Origin: a virus
Direction: 5' to 3' (one strand)
Length of the DNA: 39,178 bases
UHGV virus genome: UHGV-0034768
Part shown: piece by piece, positions 1-39,168 of the stretch
Layout: every line of letters starts with the position of its first letter
How positions within the stretch are numbered: position 1 is the stretch's first letter
Made by a program: the position numbers and the translations under genes
The notes under the pieces: generated by a model
Seen by the model: only the letters and a program-made list of their open reading frames with translations
What the model was told of the DNA's origin: nothing
The model's database searches: none

Positions 1-14
1 AGGAGAACAACTCA

Positions 15-230
15 ATGATTAAACTTATCGAATTTCTTGGTCGTCTGGTGGTGCGTGGGTATCGTCGTGCTGCGGCTATGGAACGAAAGGTAGCAGAGAA
101 GACTGCTGATGGTGCGGCTGATGCTGCTGCTCTGGCTGACAAGCTGGCCATCGCGTCACTGGAAGCTGGTATGAAGGCGCGTCAGGCTGACACAAAAGCT
201 GACCAGTTGGCTCAGTTCTTCAAAGCCTAA
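15..230 (+). CDS. hypothetical protein, Ala-rich and probably helical, at the position of T7 gene 3.8
   Basis: 71-aa ORF with AGGAGA 8 nt upstream of the ATG; lies between lysozyme (window end) and primase-helicase; no HNH motif visible. Confidence 0.55.
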   Translation: MIKLIEFLGRLVVRGYRRAAAMERKVAEKTADGAADAAALADKLAIASLEAGMKARQADTKADQLAQFFKA

Positions 231-248
231 ACTATCACCTTAGGGATG
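226..248 (+). promoter_or_regulatory. degenerate phage-RNAP promoter-like element (CCTAAACTATCACCTTAGGGATG)
   Basis: Matches the phage promoter family upstream of -5 but has CT instead of TA at -4/-3; positioned upstream of gene 4 like T7 phi3.8/phi4c. Confidence 0.35.
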
Positions 249-295
249 GGACAATGAGTCCTGTCCCTTTGTTCGCATTTGTGATTAAGGAGTGA

Positions 296-1999
<1,704 letters not shown>

Positions 2000-2032
2000 T
2001 TACGAGAAGTATAAATGGAGGGTTCCATTCTA

Positions 2033-2197
2033 ATGTTACGAAAACTTAAAGCTAGCTACCATCGGTTCATGTACAAATGGTGGAGCGACGAAGCAACATG
2101 CCTGTCAAACATTCTAGGAGAACAGAGGTTCGACTCTAAGGCATGGAAGAAGGCTAACCGTAAGTTCATGTACCACTTCTTGCGTACAGACTTCTAG
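2033..2197 (+). CDS. hypothetical small protein (gene 4.x position)
   Basis: ORF after gene 4; second ATG chosen because GGAGGG lies 9 nt upstream; no recognised domain. Confidence 0.45.
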   Translation: MLRKLKASYHRFMYKWWSDEATCLSNILGEQRFDSKAWKKANRKFMYHFLRTDF

Positions 2198-6137: not shown

Positions 6138-6160
6138 ACTAAACTATCACTATAGGGACT
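6138..6160 (+). promoter_or_regulatory. phage RNAP promoter (phi6.5 position), ACTAAACTATCACTATAGGGACT
   Basis: Full match to the window's promoter consensus; +1 G at 6155. Confidence 0.85.
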
Positions 6161-6221
6161 TTAGGACCTAAGATATGACTATAAGATAGACTTTAGTCTT
6201 AACTTAAAGAGGAGATTCAAG

Positions 6222-30907: not shown

Positions 30908-30930
30908 ACTTAACTATCACTATAGGACTC
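30908..30930 (+). promoter_or_regulatory. phage RNAP promoter directly upstream of the RNAP gene, ACTTAACTATCACTATAGGACTC
   Basis: Consensus match; +1 G at 30925, 74 nt upstream of the RNAP start codon. Confidence 0.75.
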
Positions 30931-30998: not shown

Positions 30999-33680
30999 AT
31001 GAGCGTCATCTCCATTGACAAACACGACTTCTCTGATGTGTCTAACGCTATTGAGCCGTTTAACCTGCTGGCTGACCACTACGGGCAAGACCTTGCAGTC
31101 AAGCAACTTCAGCTTGAGCATGAGGCATACACTGAAGGCGAGCGACGTTTCATCAAGAACCTTGAGCGTCAGACAGAGCGCGGTGAACTGGCAGACAATC
31201 AGGTCGCCAAGCCTTTGATGCAGACTCTGGTCCCTAAGATTGCGCAAGCCGTCAAGGAGTGGCATGACGGTCCAGACGGGAAGATGTCAACATCTCGTCC
31301 TAGCGTAGCGTTCACCATGTTGAGCACTGAAGAGAAGGCCGTCAAGGACCGCTCTCTGCGCATCTCCTGTGAGTCTGCTGCGGTTATCATACTGAAGGTC
31401 ATCCTCTCCAAGCTGGTAAAGCCTGAAGGGATACCGATTACACCGATGGCCTCAGCGATAGGTCGCACACTTGAGGACGAAATCCGCTTCGGTCGCATCC
31501 GTGACAAGGAGAAGGAGCACTTCAAGAAGGCGATAGCTGAGAACCTGAACAAGCGAGCCGGGGCATCCTACAAGAAAGCCTACATGCAAGCTGTTGAGAC
31601 CTCCATGCTTGAGCAAGGTCAACTGGAAGATGCGTGGGGAACTTGGAGTCCGACCGAGGCGGTCCATGTTGGCATCAAGATGCTTGAGATTGTCATCCAG
31701 TCCACTCAACTGGTAGAGCTTAAGCGTTATGGTGCTGGCAATGCAGCGGCTGATGTTGAGATGGTCCACCTATCAGACTTCTGGGTCAAGAAGATGGCCC
31801 AACGTGGCTTCAGCCTTGCGGGTATCGCTCCAGTCTATCAACCTTGCGTAGTTCCACCTAAGCCGTGGACGGGTGTCGTAGGCGGTGGGTATTGGGCCAA
31901 AGGACGCAGACCGTTGCCACTGATTCGCTTAGGGTCTAAGTCTGCGGTAGCACGTTATGAGGACGTGTACATGCCTGAAGTCTATGACGCTGTGAACATC
32001 ATCCAGAATACACCTTGGAAAGTTAACAAGAAGGTGTTGGACGTGGTGAACATGGTCGAGAAGCTGAACAACACGCCTATTGATGATATCCCTCAGATGG
32101 AGCCACTGAAGCCTGAAGACTATGCGGGTGAGACTGAAGAGGAACTCAAGGCATGGAAGAAGGCTGCTGCTGGTATCTACCGCCGAGAGAAGGCCCGGCA
32201 GTCACGTAGATTGTCACTGAGCTTTATCGTTAACCAGGCTAACAAGTTCTCTCAGTTCAAGGCCATCTGGTTCCCGTATAACATGGACTGGCGCGGTCGC
32301 GTATACGCTGTGCCGATGTTCAACCCTCAGGGTAACGACATGCAAAAGGGTCTCCTTACTCTGGCAGTCGGTAAGCCTATTGGTGCTGATGGTTTCAAAT
32401 GGCTGAAGGTCCACGGTGCAAACTGTGCGGGTATTGATAAAGTCACCTTCGAGGAGCGCATCAAGTGGGTGGAAGACAACCACGACAACATCATGACTAC
32501 TGCTAAGGCACCGATGGACAGCATTGAGTGGTGGGGTAAGTTAGACTCTCCGTTCTGCTTCCTCGCGTTCTGCTTCGAGTATGCTGGCGTAATGCACCAC
32601 GGCCTATCTTACTCTTGCTCGCTACCGATAGCTTTCGATGGGTCCTGCTCTGGGATTCAGCACTTCAGCGCGATGCTTCGAGATCACATCGGTGGACATG
32701 CAGTAAACTTGACGCCATCCGGTAAGGTCCAAGACATCTACCGCATCGTATCCGACCGCATTGAGGAGGAACTTAAAGTCCTGCTGGTTAACGGTACGGA
32801 CAACGAGATGGTAACTCACGAGGATAAGAAAACTGGTGAGATTACCGAGCGTCTCAAGCTGGGGACACGAGAGCTGTCCCGTCAGTGGCTGACCTACGGT
32901 ATGTCACGCAAGGTTACTAAGCGTTCGGTTATGACTCTGGCCTACGGGTCGAAAGAGTACGGCTTCGCAGACCAAGTTTACGAGGACATCGTGATGCCAG
33001 CGATTGACTCAGGGTCTGGTGCCATGTTCACCGAGCCAAGCCAAGCGTCTCGTTTCATGGCTAAGATGATTTGGGAAGCTGTGAGTGTGACCGTAGTCGC
33101 TGCGGTTGACGCAATGAAGTGGCTTCAAGGTGCTGCTAAGCTGCTGGCTGCTGAAGTAAAGGACAAGAAGACAGGCGAAATACTGAAGCCTTGCCTTCCG
33201 GTACACTGGGTAACACCTGATGGTTTCCCGGTCTGGCAGGAATACCGCAAGAAGGATACAACCCGTCTGAACCTGATGTTCTTAGGGTCGTTCAACCTTC
33301 AGCCTACCGTCAACAGGGGTACGAAGAAAGAGCTGGACAAGCACAAGCAGGAGTCAGGCATTAGCCCGAACTTCGTCCACTCACAAGATGGTAGCCACCT
33401 CCGCAAGACTGTAGTCCACACGCACCGCAAGTATGGCGTAATGTCCTTCGCAGTGATTCACGATAGCTTCGGGACCATCCCGGCTGACGCTGAGTATCTG
33501 TTCCGTGGGGTCCGTGAGACTATGGTAGAGACCTACCGCGACAATGATGTGCTGCTTGACTTCTACGAGCAGTTCGAATACCAGCTTCACGAGAGCCAGC
33601 GCGACAAGTTGCCTGAGCTTCCGAAGAAAGGTAAACTGAACATAGAAGACATCTTGTCTTCAGACTTTGCATTCGCTTAA
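30999..33680 (+). CDS. gp1: DNA-directed RNA polymerase, single-subunit (T7 gp1-like)
   Basis: Start at MSVISIDKHDFSD (T7 MNTINIAKNDFSD) with AAGGA RBS; extensive identity to T7 RNAP including PWTGVVGGGYWA, FPYNMDWRGRVYAV, NCSLP.AFDGSCSGIQHFSAMLRD, HDSFGT, and C-terminal FAFA. Confidence 0.97.
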   Translation: MSVISIDKHDFSDVSNAIEPFNLLADHYGQDLAVKQLQLEHEAYTEGERRFIKNLERQTERGELADNQVAKPLMQTLVPKIAQAVKEWHDGPDGKMSTSRPSVAFTMLSTEEKAVKDRSLRISCESAAVIILKVILSKLVKPEGIPITPMASAIGRTLEDEIRFGRIRDKEKEHFKKAIAENLNKRAGASYKKAYMQAVETSMLEQGQLEDAWGTWSPTEAVHVGIKMLEIVIQSTQLVELKRYGAGNAAADVEMVHLSDFWVKKMAQRGFSLAGIAPVYQPCVVPPKPWTGVVGGGYWAKGRRPLPLIRLGSKSAVARYEDVYMPEVYDAVNIIQNTPWKVNKKVLDVVNMVEKLNNTPIDDIPQMEPLKPEDYAGETEEELKAWKKAAAGIYRREKARQSRRLSLSFIVNQANKFSQFKAIWFPYNMDWRGRVYAVPMFNPQGNDMQKGLLTLAVGKPIGADGFKWLKVHGANCAGIDKVTFEERIKWVEDNHDNIMTTAKAPMDSIEWWGKLDSPFCFLAFCFEYAGVMHHGLSYSCSLPIAFDGSCSGIQHFSAMLRDHIGGHAVNLTPSGKVQDIYRIVSDRIEEELKVLLVNGTDNEMVTHEDKKTGEITERLKLGTRELSRQWLTYGMSRKVTKRSVMTLAYGSKEYGFADQVYEDIVMPAIDSGSGAMFTEPSQASRFMAKMIWEAVSVTVVAAVDAMKWLQGAAKLLAAEVKDKKTGEILKPCLPVHWVTPDGFPVWQEYRKKDTTRLNLMFLGSFNLQPTVNRGTKKELDKHKQESGISPNFVHSQDGSHLRKTVVHTHRKYGVMSFAVIHDSFGTIPADAEYLFRGVRETMVETYRDNDVLLDFYEQFEYQLHESQRDKLPELPKKGKLNIEDILSSDFAFA

Positions 33681-36862: not shown

Positions 36863-37021
36863 ATGACTGAGGTTGAGAAGAAATACATCGTGGAGCTTGA
36901 GGGTCGCGTTCAGTCCTTCGAGGTTCCGGTGTACGCAAAGTCTCTTGAAGAGGCTACCCTGAAGTCCCAAGAGTATGAGGACGCTGGGTTCGTGGTCGGA
37001 CGGATTCGTCCTGAGACCTAA
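36863..37021 (+). CDS. gp2: gp2-like inhibitor of host RNA polymerase
   Basis: 52 aa; [15 protein letters not shown]....YEDAGF.VGRIRP resembles T7 gp2 HSFEVPIYAETLDEA...YVPAGFEVTRVRP; RBS GGAAGGAG. Confidence 0.8.
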
Positions 37022-38229: not shown

Positions 38230-38720
38230 TGAGCAAGAAGTTTAAACTGTTAGTAGATGCGTATGGCTGGCCTAGTGGGACTATAGTTACCAAGTGTGAG
38301 AAGGACCCAGCACCAGATTCAAGAATGACCCTAGTTGAGTGTCAGACTCCTGGAGCATACAAACATGGGTCTAACGGCTACAATACTCAGCCTGAGGGTA
38401 TGTGGGGAGCATGGGTCCTTAATCACAAACTTCAGGAAATCAAGCAAGAAGAGAAACTCACTGGTGCACAGACCACTCAGGTCCTACCAGCTTCTAGCGT
38501 ACCTCCTGTGACAGTGAAACGCGAAGTCCTGACAATCGACAAGATTGGTGTAGGCCAGACGTTCATCGTCCATGGAAAGCCTGAAGAAGTTTACGTGAAG
38601 ATTAGCAACTCACACGTCTTCAACCATAAGCTGCTTCAGATGCACACTACGGACGCACAACGCTTCACCCAGCACCTGAATCTAGTGGTCGTAGAATTGG
38701 TGGTGTACAATGGTAAGTAA
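38226..38720 (+). CDS. hypothetical protein (164 aa) inserted between endonuclease I and lysozyme
   Basis: ORF overlapping both neighbours by a few nt (operon-embedded); no counterpart in T7 where genes 3 and 3.5 abut; function unknown. Confidence 0.65.
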   Translation: MMSKKFKLLVDAYGWPSGTIVTKCEKDPAPDSRMTLVECQTPGAYKHGSNGYNTQPEGMWGAWVLNHKLQEIKQEEKLTGAQTTQVLPASSVPPVTVKREVLTIDKIGVGQTFIVHGKPEEVYVKISNSHVFNHKLLQMHTTDAQRFTQHLNLVVVELVVYNGK

Positions 38721-39168
38721 GGTACAGTTCAACCCACGGTCCAGGACTGACGCTATCTTCGTTCACTGTTCGGCTACCAAGCCAGATATGGACATCGGGG
38801 TAGAGACCATCCGTATGTGGCACAAGCAGCAAGGCTGGCTGGACGTAGGCTATCACTTTATCATCAAACGTGATGGTACTGTGGAAGAGGGTCGCCCGGT
38901 CAATGTAGTAGGGTCACACGTTAAGGACTGGAACTCCAAGTCCGTAGGCGTCTGCCTTGTAGGTGGAATCAACGCTAAGGGTCAGTTTGAAGCTAACTTC
39001 ACTCCAGCCCAGATGAACTCCCTGCGCAACAAGCTGGCTGACCTGAAGGTCCTGTATCCTCAGGCAGAAATCAAAGCACACCATGACGTAGCACCGAAGG
39101 CGTGTCCAAGTTTTGACTTGCAACGTTGGCTATCTACCAACGAACTGGTCACTTCCGACCGTGGTTAA
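38710..39168 (+). CDS. gp3.5: lysozyme, N-acetylmuramoyl-L-alanine amidase (T7 gp3.5-like; the T7 protein also inhibits its RNAP)
   Basis: 152 aa; TDAIFVHCSATKP, WLDVGYHFIIKRDGTVE.GR, SIGVCLVGGI, ANFTPAQM.SLR, AHH.VAPKACPSFDL.RW...NELVTSDRG nearly identical to T7 lysozyme. Confidence 0.97.
   Translation: MVSKVQFNPRSRTDAIFVHCSATKPDMDIGVETIRMWHKQQGWLDVGYHFIIKRDGTVEEGRPVNVVGSHVKDWNSKSVGVCLVGGINAKGQFEANFTPAQMNSLRNKLADLKVLYPQAEIKAHHDVAPKACPSFDLQRWLSTNELVTSDRG

Follow-up and report, generated by a model that had tools for sequence, protein, structure and literature searches.

Between its genes 3.5 and 4 phage T7 carries the promoter phi3.8 and the HNH gene 3.8, and the question raised by the locus studied here is what has taken their place in a related phage. 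The first-pass annotation had seen a different gene at the T7 gene 3.8 position, namely an alanine-rich helical ORF of 71 aa, together with a degenerate promoter, and had taken both as evidence of module exchange or decay upstream of gene 4. We analyzed this region in the window, by which we mean the whole stretch UHGV-0034768 of 39,178 nt; all positions refer to one strand, 5′ to 3′.

Gene order upstream of gene 4 and the 3.8 slot

The first 2.4 kb of the window are 95–96% identical to many Escherichia phage records of the genus Kayfunavirus (K1F-like; Autographiviridae, Studiervirinae), and in this nucleotide comparison 218 records reached a query coverage of at least 80%. Two records with 94–96% identity to this E. 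coli-type Kayfunavirus, PV615262.1 and MT350292.1, bear the names "Acinetobacter phage vB_Aba_01KA" and "Enterococcus phage EFA-1", and these host labels look doubtful. The window ends within the spacer 3′ of the amidase/lysozyme gene 3.5 (38710–39168, + strand; taken from the ORF list and annotated as the same gene in K1F and ASO2B) and begins at the ribosome-binding site of gene 3.7, whose Shine–Dalgarno sequence AGGAG can be read at 1–5 (+), 9 nt 5′ of the ATG at 15. Since the end of the window joined to its start is contiguous in K1F and ASO2B, we read the window as a complete, circularly permuted Kayfunavirus genome.

The gene order across this junction is 3–3.2–3.5–ORF 15–230–promoter-like element–4, and positions 15–298 have the standard layout of the genus between the lysozyme gene 3.5 and the primase/helicase gene 4 (299–1999, +). 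T7 has the order 3.5, phi3.8, a hairpin, the HNH gene 3.8 and gene 4; T3 has 3.5, gene 3.7, phi3.8, R3.8 and gene 4, without an HNH gene. The window shares the T3 layout: the end of T3 gene 3.7 runs into its promoter phi3.8, and the stop codon TAA of the ORF (228–230) likewise lies inside the promoter element. Being upstream of the promoter, the ORF sits in the slot of T3 gene 3.7 and not, as had been assumed, at the position of T7 gene 3.8, which is found downstream of the promoter. The real 3.8 slot, which falls between leader and gene 4, is empty here. With the HNH endonuclease gp3.8 of T7 the ORF shares only the general neighborhood upstream of gene 4; it has no HNH domain (its only Pfam match is a weak one to DUF5471), is all-helical and lies on the opposite side of the promoter. 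T3 gp3.7 was considered as a homologue and rejected, this being an unrelated Cys-rich peptide of 35 aa. It is nevertheless correct that the T7-type HNH gene 3.8 is missing, as no HNH gene is present between gene 3.5 and gene 4.

The 3.8 slot is variably filled in relatives. In two of them (L008, L021) the R3.8-like hairpin is separated from gene 4 by an insertion (+88 bp) with a tRNA-Thr(CGT)-like gene, and in two others (L009, L011) a 59-aa ORF (+190 bp) fills the slot. The metagenomic contigs L061 and L085 encode a 121-aa HNH_3 protein with 55% identity to T7 gp3.8 (E = 4e-50); T7 gp3.8 and the L061 ORF both match HNH_3. Promoter, hairpin and ribosome-binding site of these contigs are the same as in the window, and the HNH gene then follows and extends into the beginning of gene 4, as T7 gene 3.8 does. 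Gene 3.7 is cut there to a remnant of 29 codons and the variant promoter and the hairpin are intact (L061, 582–671 and 738–1103; also L085). In Citrobacter phage SH3 the order is gp3.7, an HNH protein labeled "gp3.8 [T7] 54%" and gp4 (PMC4925675). From the arrangements in L061, L085 and SH3 it follows that genes 3.7 and 3.8 are separate, independently variable slots flanking the promoter. The HNH gene 3.8 of T7 is a mobile and optional gene, placed between leader and gene 4 and lacking in this phage, and the T7 3.8 slot is an insertion hot-spot (HNH gene, tRNA or small ORF in relatives) rather than the fixed position of one gene.

Regarding the other two inserts, the tRNA-Thr(CGT)-like gene (L008, 1780–1858; L021, 1777–1855) is listed as tRNA-OTHER in one GenBank record. 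The 59-aa ORF (L009, 1785–1964; also L011, L028 and L040) occurs in vB_EcoP_F-like phages, reuses the ribosome-binding site of gene 4 and has no Pfam match.

The gene 3.7 product and its counterpart in T7

The ORF at 15–230 (+) encodes 71 aa, of which 19 are alanine (27%), and the AlphaFold model built with 22 homologues is a continuous single helix from residue 2 to residue 70 with a mean pLDDT of 93.6. The earlier description as an Ala-rich helical protein was thus accurate, but the gene is not a new one. The K1F record NC_007636 names it gp3.7, and the K1F protein (YP_424933 / YP_338106) is its orthologue with 90% identity, equal position and length and no substantive difference. A tblastn search found gene 3.7 in about 190 phage records, and a search of 5.8 billion proteins yielded 79 relatives of the product, nearly all of 70–71 aa. 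The first-pass annotation had named two findings that would speak against its reading, a fully active promoter and an ORF that is a known conserved gene, and the sequence search of the 71-aa protein has produced the second of these.

The product matches phrog_1950 over positions 1–70 of 70 (E = 1e-24) and reaches 19.6 bits with Pfam DUF5471, under the gathering cut-off of 25 bits. DUF5471 is defined by T7 gp4.3 (70 aa; 2e-50, 169 bits), which matches the same PHROG 1950 with 6e-31, and gp4.3 of Erwinia phage L1 matches both families (DUF5471 with 40 bits). Compared directly by BLASTP, the gene 3.7 product and T7 gp4.3 are 36% identical end to end (E = 2e-7), and a profile of Kayfunavirus gp3.7 retrieves gp4.3-like proteins of 69–70 aa from a library of 1.84 billion proteins. 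The two proteins agree in length (70–71 aa), in their PHROG and in the motifs M.KLI..LG.L.VR.Y at the N-terminus and QL..FF at the C-terminus; the gene 3.7 product is richer in alanine. Members of the genus agree in the N-terminal 16 residues, MIKxIEFLGxLVVRGY, and in the L..FF at the C-terminus, with a variable part in between. The dN/dS values of 0.15–0.57 mark gene 3.7 as a real coding gene under purifying selection.

Judged by these matches, gene 3.7 is a homologue of T7 gene 4.3 which is placed before gene 4 and not after it. T7, T3 and Erwinia phage L1 carry the gene after gene 4 and behind a promoter, annotated as phi4.3 in T7 and T3 and read from the sequence in L1, whereas in Kayfunavirus it precedes gene 4 and lacks a promoter of its own. 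It would be read from transcripts of upstream class II promoters, the nearest being the one at 37017. The ORF following gene 4 in the window (2015–2197) belongs to the unrelated phrog_13039. The explicit assignment of gp3.7 to the gp4.3 family is modestly new, as it was already implicit in PHROG 1950, and the benefit is mostly one of annotation: the "gp3.7 hypothetical protein" of Kayfunavirus becomes a T7 gp4.3-family protein.

T7 gp4.3 is dispensable (PMC12664982). In a preprint its deletion lowered plating on one RADAR system by about 70%, and the protein was described as a weak RADAR2 counter which resembles the helical ATPase inhibitor IF1 (PMC11482910). By analogy the gene 3.7 product may likewise act as a weak RADAR counter-defence protein, and this is the only functional lead.

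A promoter variant conserved across the genus

The window contains ten canonical promoters, all on the + strand, at positions 6138, 8958, 9957, 14638, 21914, 28039, 30908, 34436, 36141 and 37017. They have the form (A/C)CT(A/T)A(A/G)CTATCACT(A/G)TAGG, which agrees with the K1F consensus as given in the note of a GenBank record. With a weight matrix built from these ten promoters, the element upstream of gene 4 (226–248, +; −17 to +6), the 23-mer CCTAAACTATCACCTTAGGGATG, scores 25.2 bits and takes rank 11, and the next sites have 15.5 and 6.9 bits. Its recognition region (−17 to −5) matches at 13 of 13 positions and with 23.5 bits ties the best of the genome; a 17-mer search allowing at most three mismatches found seven sites where 0.11 are expected by chance. 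The element departs from the consensus only at −4 (T to C, C239) and −3 (A to T, T240), so that its core is CACCTTAGGG (236–245) compared with the canonical CACTATAGGG and its melting segment (−4 to −1) reads CTTA and not TATA. All ten other promoters have T at −4, and at −3 nine have A and one has G. The promoter-like element with two core substitutions seen in the first pass is thus confirmed. The start region GGGA (243–246, +) is intergenic, and the predicted start G243 lies 56 nt 5′ of the ATG of gene 4.

Two further sites deserve mention. A degenerate promoter-like site at 6167–6189 (CCTAAGATATGACTATAAGATAG, 15.5 bits), 29 nt beyond the start of the canonical 6138 promoter, is the only other one well above background. 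The canonical promoter at 30908–30930 lies 69 nt 5′ of gene 1 for the phage RNA polymerase (ATG at 30999), so that gene 1 could be transcribed by its own product; T7 is not known to have such a promoter before its own polymerase gene.

For the conservation analysis IMG/VR and a metagenome collection were scanned with patterns that left positions −4 to −2 free. C at −4 and T at −3 were present in all 28 orthologous sites examined, in sequences that are closely related, always in the form CACCT(T/A)AGGG except for a G at −6 in one sequence, and the canonical version was found in none of these 28. Among 21 distinct Kayfunavirus sequences, 19 have CACCTTAGGG, one has CACCTAAGGG and one CGCCTTAGGG; the further metagenome orthologues have CACCTTAGGG in seven of seven cases. 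Across positions −12 to −5 the G at −6 is the single change in the 28 sites, and position −17 varies among A, C and G in relatives. In the same genomes the nucleotide identity of gene 3.7 falls to 57–68% with dS values of 0.65–1.25. Decay would be expected to erode the recognition half of a promoter, and here this half is retained together with C-4/T-3 at 28 of 28 sites, next to an ORF whose nucleotide identity goes down to 57%. The proposal of decay therefore does not fit. From these alignments the double substitution is a promoter variant fixed across the genus and part of its ordinary architecture. The counterpart of phi2.5 also varies at −3, being CACTGTAGG here and CACTTTAGG in ASO2B.

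How strongly such a promoter might fire can be estimated from T7. In the supplementary data of Komura 2018 (PMC5937735) the T7 promoter double mutant TAATACGACTCACCTTAGG, the exact analogue of our element, gave 3.63 RNA/DNA reads in vitro compared with a wild-type mean of 169 ± 19. This amounts to about 2%, a proxy obtained with one barcode, T7 RNA polymerase and a linear template which may not transfer to a K1F-type polymerase, and places the mutant in the above-1% group of that study. The natural class II variant CACTAAAGG had values of 138–161 in the same barcoded library of T7 promoter variants. C-4/T-3 therefore probably weakens the promoter, and the word degenerate is justified to this extent. 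Of the original interpretation as a whole, the absence of the HNH gene and a non-consensus, probably weakened promoter stand, and the slot, the novelty of the gene and decay do not. A search of the literature gave no transcription data for Kayfunavirus; published consensus-repeat searches in the genus miss the element, and in the close relative ASO2B the annotators called no promoter at the homologous site.

The leader hairpin and the proposed working of the promoter

From the predicted +1 onward the sequence can fold into a hairpin (243–267, +) of 25 nt with 10 bp and a 5-nt loop (−15.9 kcal/mol, z = −4.1); the equivalent T7 hairpin has 8 bp and −12.2 kcal/mol. Across the 21 distinct Kayfunavirus sequences 98.8% of the cells are paired, and six sequences share one compensatory exchange of G-C and A-U, which is probably a single evolutionary event. 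T3 annotates the hairpin as the RNase III site R3.8 in the same place, directly before gene 4, and R3.8 has this place on the T7 map as well. An Rfam search of positions 1–400 gave only chance-level matches (E above 2), and Rfam has no family for the R3.8-type hairpin.

The similarity to T7 and T3 extends beyond the hairpin. All three phages have, after gene 3.5 and before gene 4, a GGGA...TCCC hairpin at +1 with a 5-nt loop. Downstream of the promoter element the window reads GGGATGGGACAATGAGTCCTGTCCC-TTTGTTCGCATT...GATTAAGGAGTGACCAATG, the T7 counterpart is phi3.8-GGGAGACCACAGCGGTTTCCC-TTTGTTCGCATT and that of T3 is GGGAGACTTAACGTTTCCC-TTTGTTCTCGCA...GATTAAGGAATGTACAATG. The gene 4 leader (268–298, +) accordingly contains TTTGTTCGCATT in common with T7, followed by the Shine–Dalgarno sequence AAGGAG at 287–292. 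The block TCCCTTTGTTC is invariant in a four-way alignment, the leaders of T7 and T3 share the block CCCTTTGTTC(G)C with the window, and T3 shares in addition the ribosome-binding region of gene 4, GATTAAGGA.TG..CAATG. In T7 the gene served by the leader is the HNH gene 3.8, and in the window and T3 it is gene 4 itself. On this evidence we regard the promoter and the +1 hairpin as homologous to phi3.8 and R3.8 of T7 and T3.

The promoter at this slot departs from the consensus of its own phage in all three cases. T7 phi3.8 is off consensus in the recognition half (−13 to −11; compared with phi4.3) and at −2, and T3 phi3.8 at −10 of the T3 consensus, whereas the element in the window has a perfect recognition half and deviates in the melting segment (−4, −3). 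With phi3.8 of T7 off consensus and position −3 variable within the genus, weakness of the promoter in this slot seems to be common to these phages.

Three further pairings were considered and dropped. An RNase III-style lower stem (ATCAC with GTGAT) had 87.6% paired cells and no covariation, and a pairing of the promoter CCTTA or CCT with the gene 4 Shine–Dalgarno sequence in read-through RNA was likewise abandoned. Both were seen in one minimum-free-energy fold; the stem ends break in 5–8 of the 21 sequences without compensation, and position −17 may be A, C or G, which spoke against them. Typical T7 RNase III sites have a flanking lower stem, and the hairpin of the window differs in having no supported one. 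It was also rejected that C-4/T-3 serve to extend the hairpin as TAAA does in T7 and T3, the canonical TATA being, by inspection, the better partner for the following UUUG.

Taken together, the element is the orthologue of phi3.8 of T7 and T3, and we consider it probable that it is a maintained, weak class II promoter with a processing or stabilizing hairpin before gene 4. The element overlaps the stop codon of gene 3.7 and would start transcription at G243. With a perfect recognition half from −17 to −5 it should be bound by the phage RNA polymerase, and because C-4/T-3 replace the TA of the TATA segment which has to melt, open-complex formation should be poor; a deliberately weak promoter may be the outcome. 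The first 25 bases from this start fold into the hairpin, as in phi3.8 and phi10 of T7. On transcripts begun at G243 this hairpin may act as a protective 5′ stem–loop, and on read-through RNA, by its likeness to T7 and T3, as an R3.8-type site for RNase III processing and 3′ stabilization. No other promoter-like site lies between 37017 and 6138, a distance of 8.3 kb, and genes 4–6 should thus depend mainly on read-through with the element as a supplement at most. Its output is predicted to be a small, early and probably lysozyme-sensitive amount of gene 4-5-6 transcripts added to read-through transcription. The genus would then have one more, weak promoter than consensus-repeat searches report, and for users of K1F-type RNA polymerases in synthetic biology this predicted low-strength variant, natural and conserved, is a candidate weak part.

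Alternatively the element could be the relic of a dead promoter, with genes 4–6 transcribed solely by read-through from 37017 and the promoters upstream of it, and its sequence could persist by selection on the RNA hairpin and the end of gene 3.7 or simply owing to the youth of the genus. This is conceivable, since the same double substitution leaves a T7 promoter with roughly 2% in the supplementary data cited above (PMC5937735), the site escapes annotation in ASO2B and consensus searches, and the identity at this locus is 90% or more in most of the compared genomes. We nevertheless regard both the loss of function and this account of the conservation as unlikely. Positions −12 to −5 are non-coding and outside the hairpin and have changed only once in 28 sites, next to an ORF with the dS values given above. 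The pairing of ATCAC with the downstream GTGAT is not maintained, so that no RNA role explains the conservation of the recognition half, and at the homologous position both T7 and T3 still have an annotated promoter.

A more far-reaching version of the weak promoter would be that C-4/T-3 are a selected regulatory design and not just a weakness that is tolerated, which we consider speculative and rather improbable. The promoter may in that case combine full polymerase affinity with an initiation segment that is hard to melt, and may fire only at high negative supercoiling during early DNA entry, at high RNA polymerase levels or in the absence of the gp3.5 lysozyme. If true, gene 4 would have a timing control that no other promoter of the genus provides. 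In the same speculative vein, but independently of the promoter, the shift of the gp4.3 homologue across gene 4 would mean that an anti-defence accessory gene has been rewired specifically in this genus.

A perfect recognition half next to a defective and invariant melting half would also be expected of a site which binds the phage RNA polymerase tightly and seldom initiates, and which would serve, for example, as a sink or roadblock for the polymerase, as a pause site or in the priming of replication; T7 promoters do double as replication origins. However, no AT-rich origin-like tract lies downstream. A hairpin exactly at +1 is the typical look of T7-type promoter leaders, and as a hallmark of a transcribed leader it makes such a site very unlikely.

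Finally, that the hairpin and its T-rich tail (248–277) are an intrinsic terminator of the gene 3.5–3.7 transcription unit, as annotated (rho-independent) in ASO2B (MZ726794) and as suggested by a simple scan listing GGGACAATGAGTCCTGTCCC followed by TTTGTTCGCA, has hardly any probability: the scan gives two terminator-like sites where 1.3 are expected, no excess over chance, the tail has just three consecutive T, the homologous hairpin of T7 and T3 is annotated as the RNase III site R3.8, and the essential genes 4–6 would lose their read-through if transcripts ended here, the next canonical promoter being that at 6138. The host RNA polymerase, moreover, does not normally transcribe this region in T7 biology. 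The hairpin called terminator in some records is thus more plausibly the phi3.8/R3.8 leader of gene 4 with a conserved variant in the melting region, a reading which is modestly new.

A second hairpin is found at 2197–2240, 3′ of the small ORF after gene 4, where a relative also annotates a rho-independent terminator. Its position suggests a possible correspondence to the R4.7 processing site of T7 and T3.
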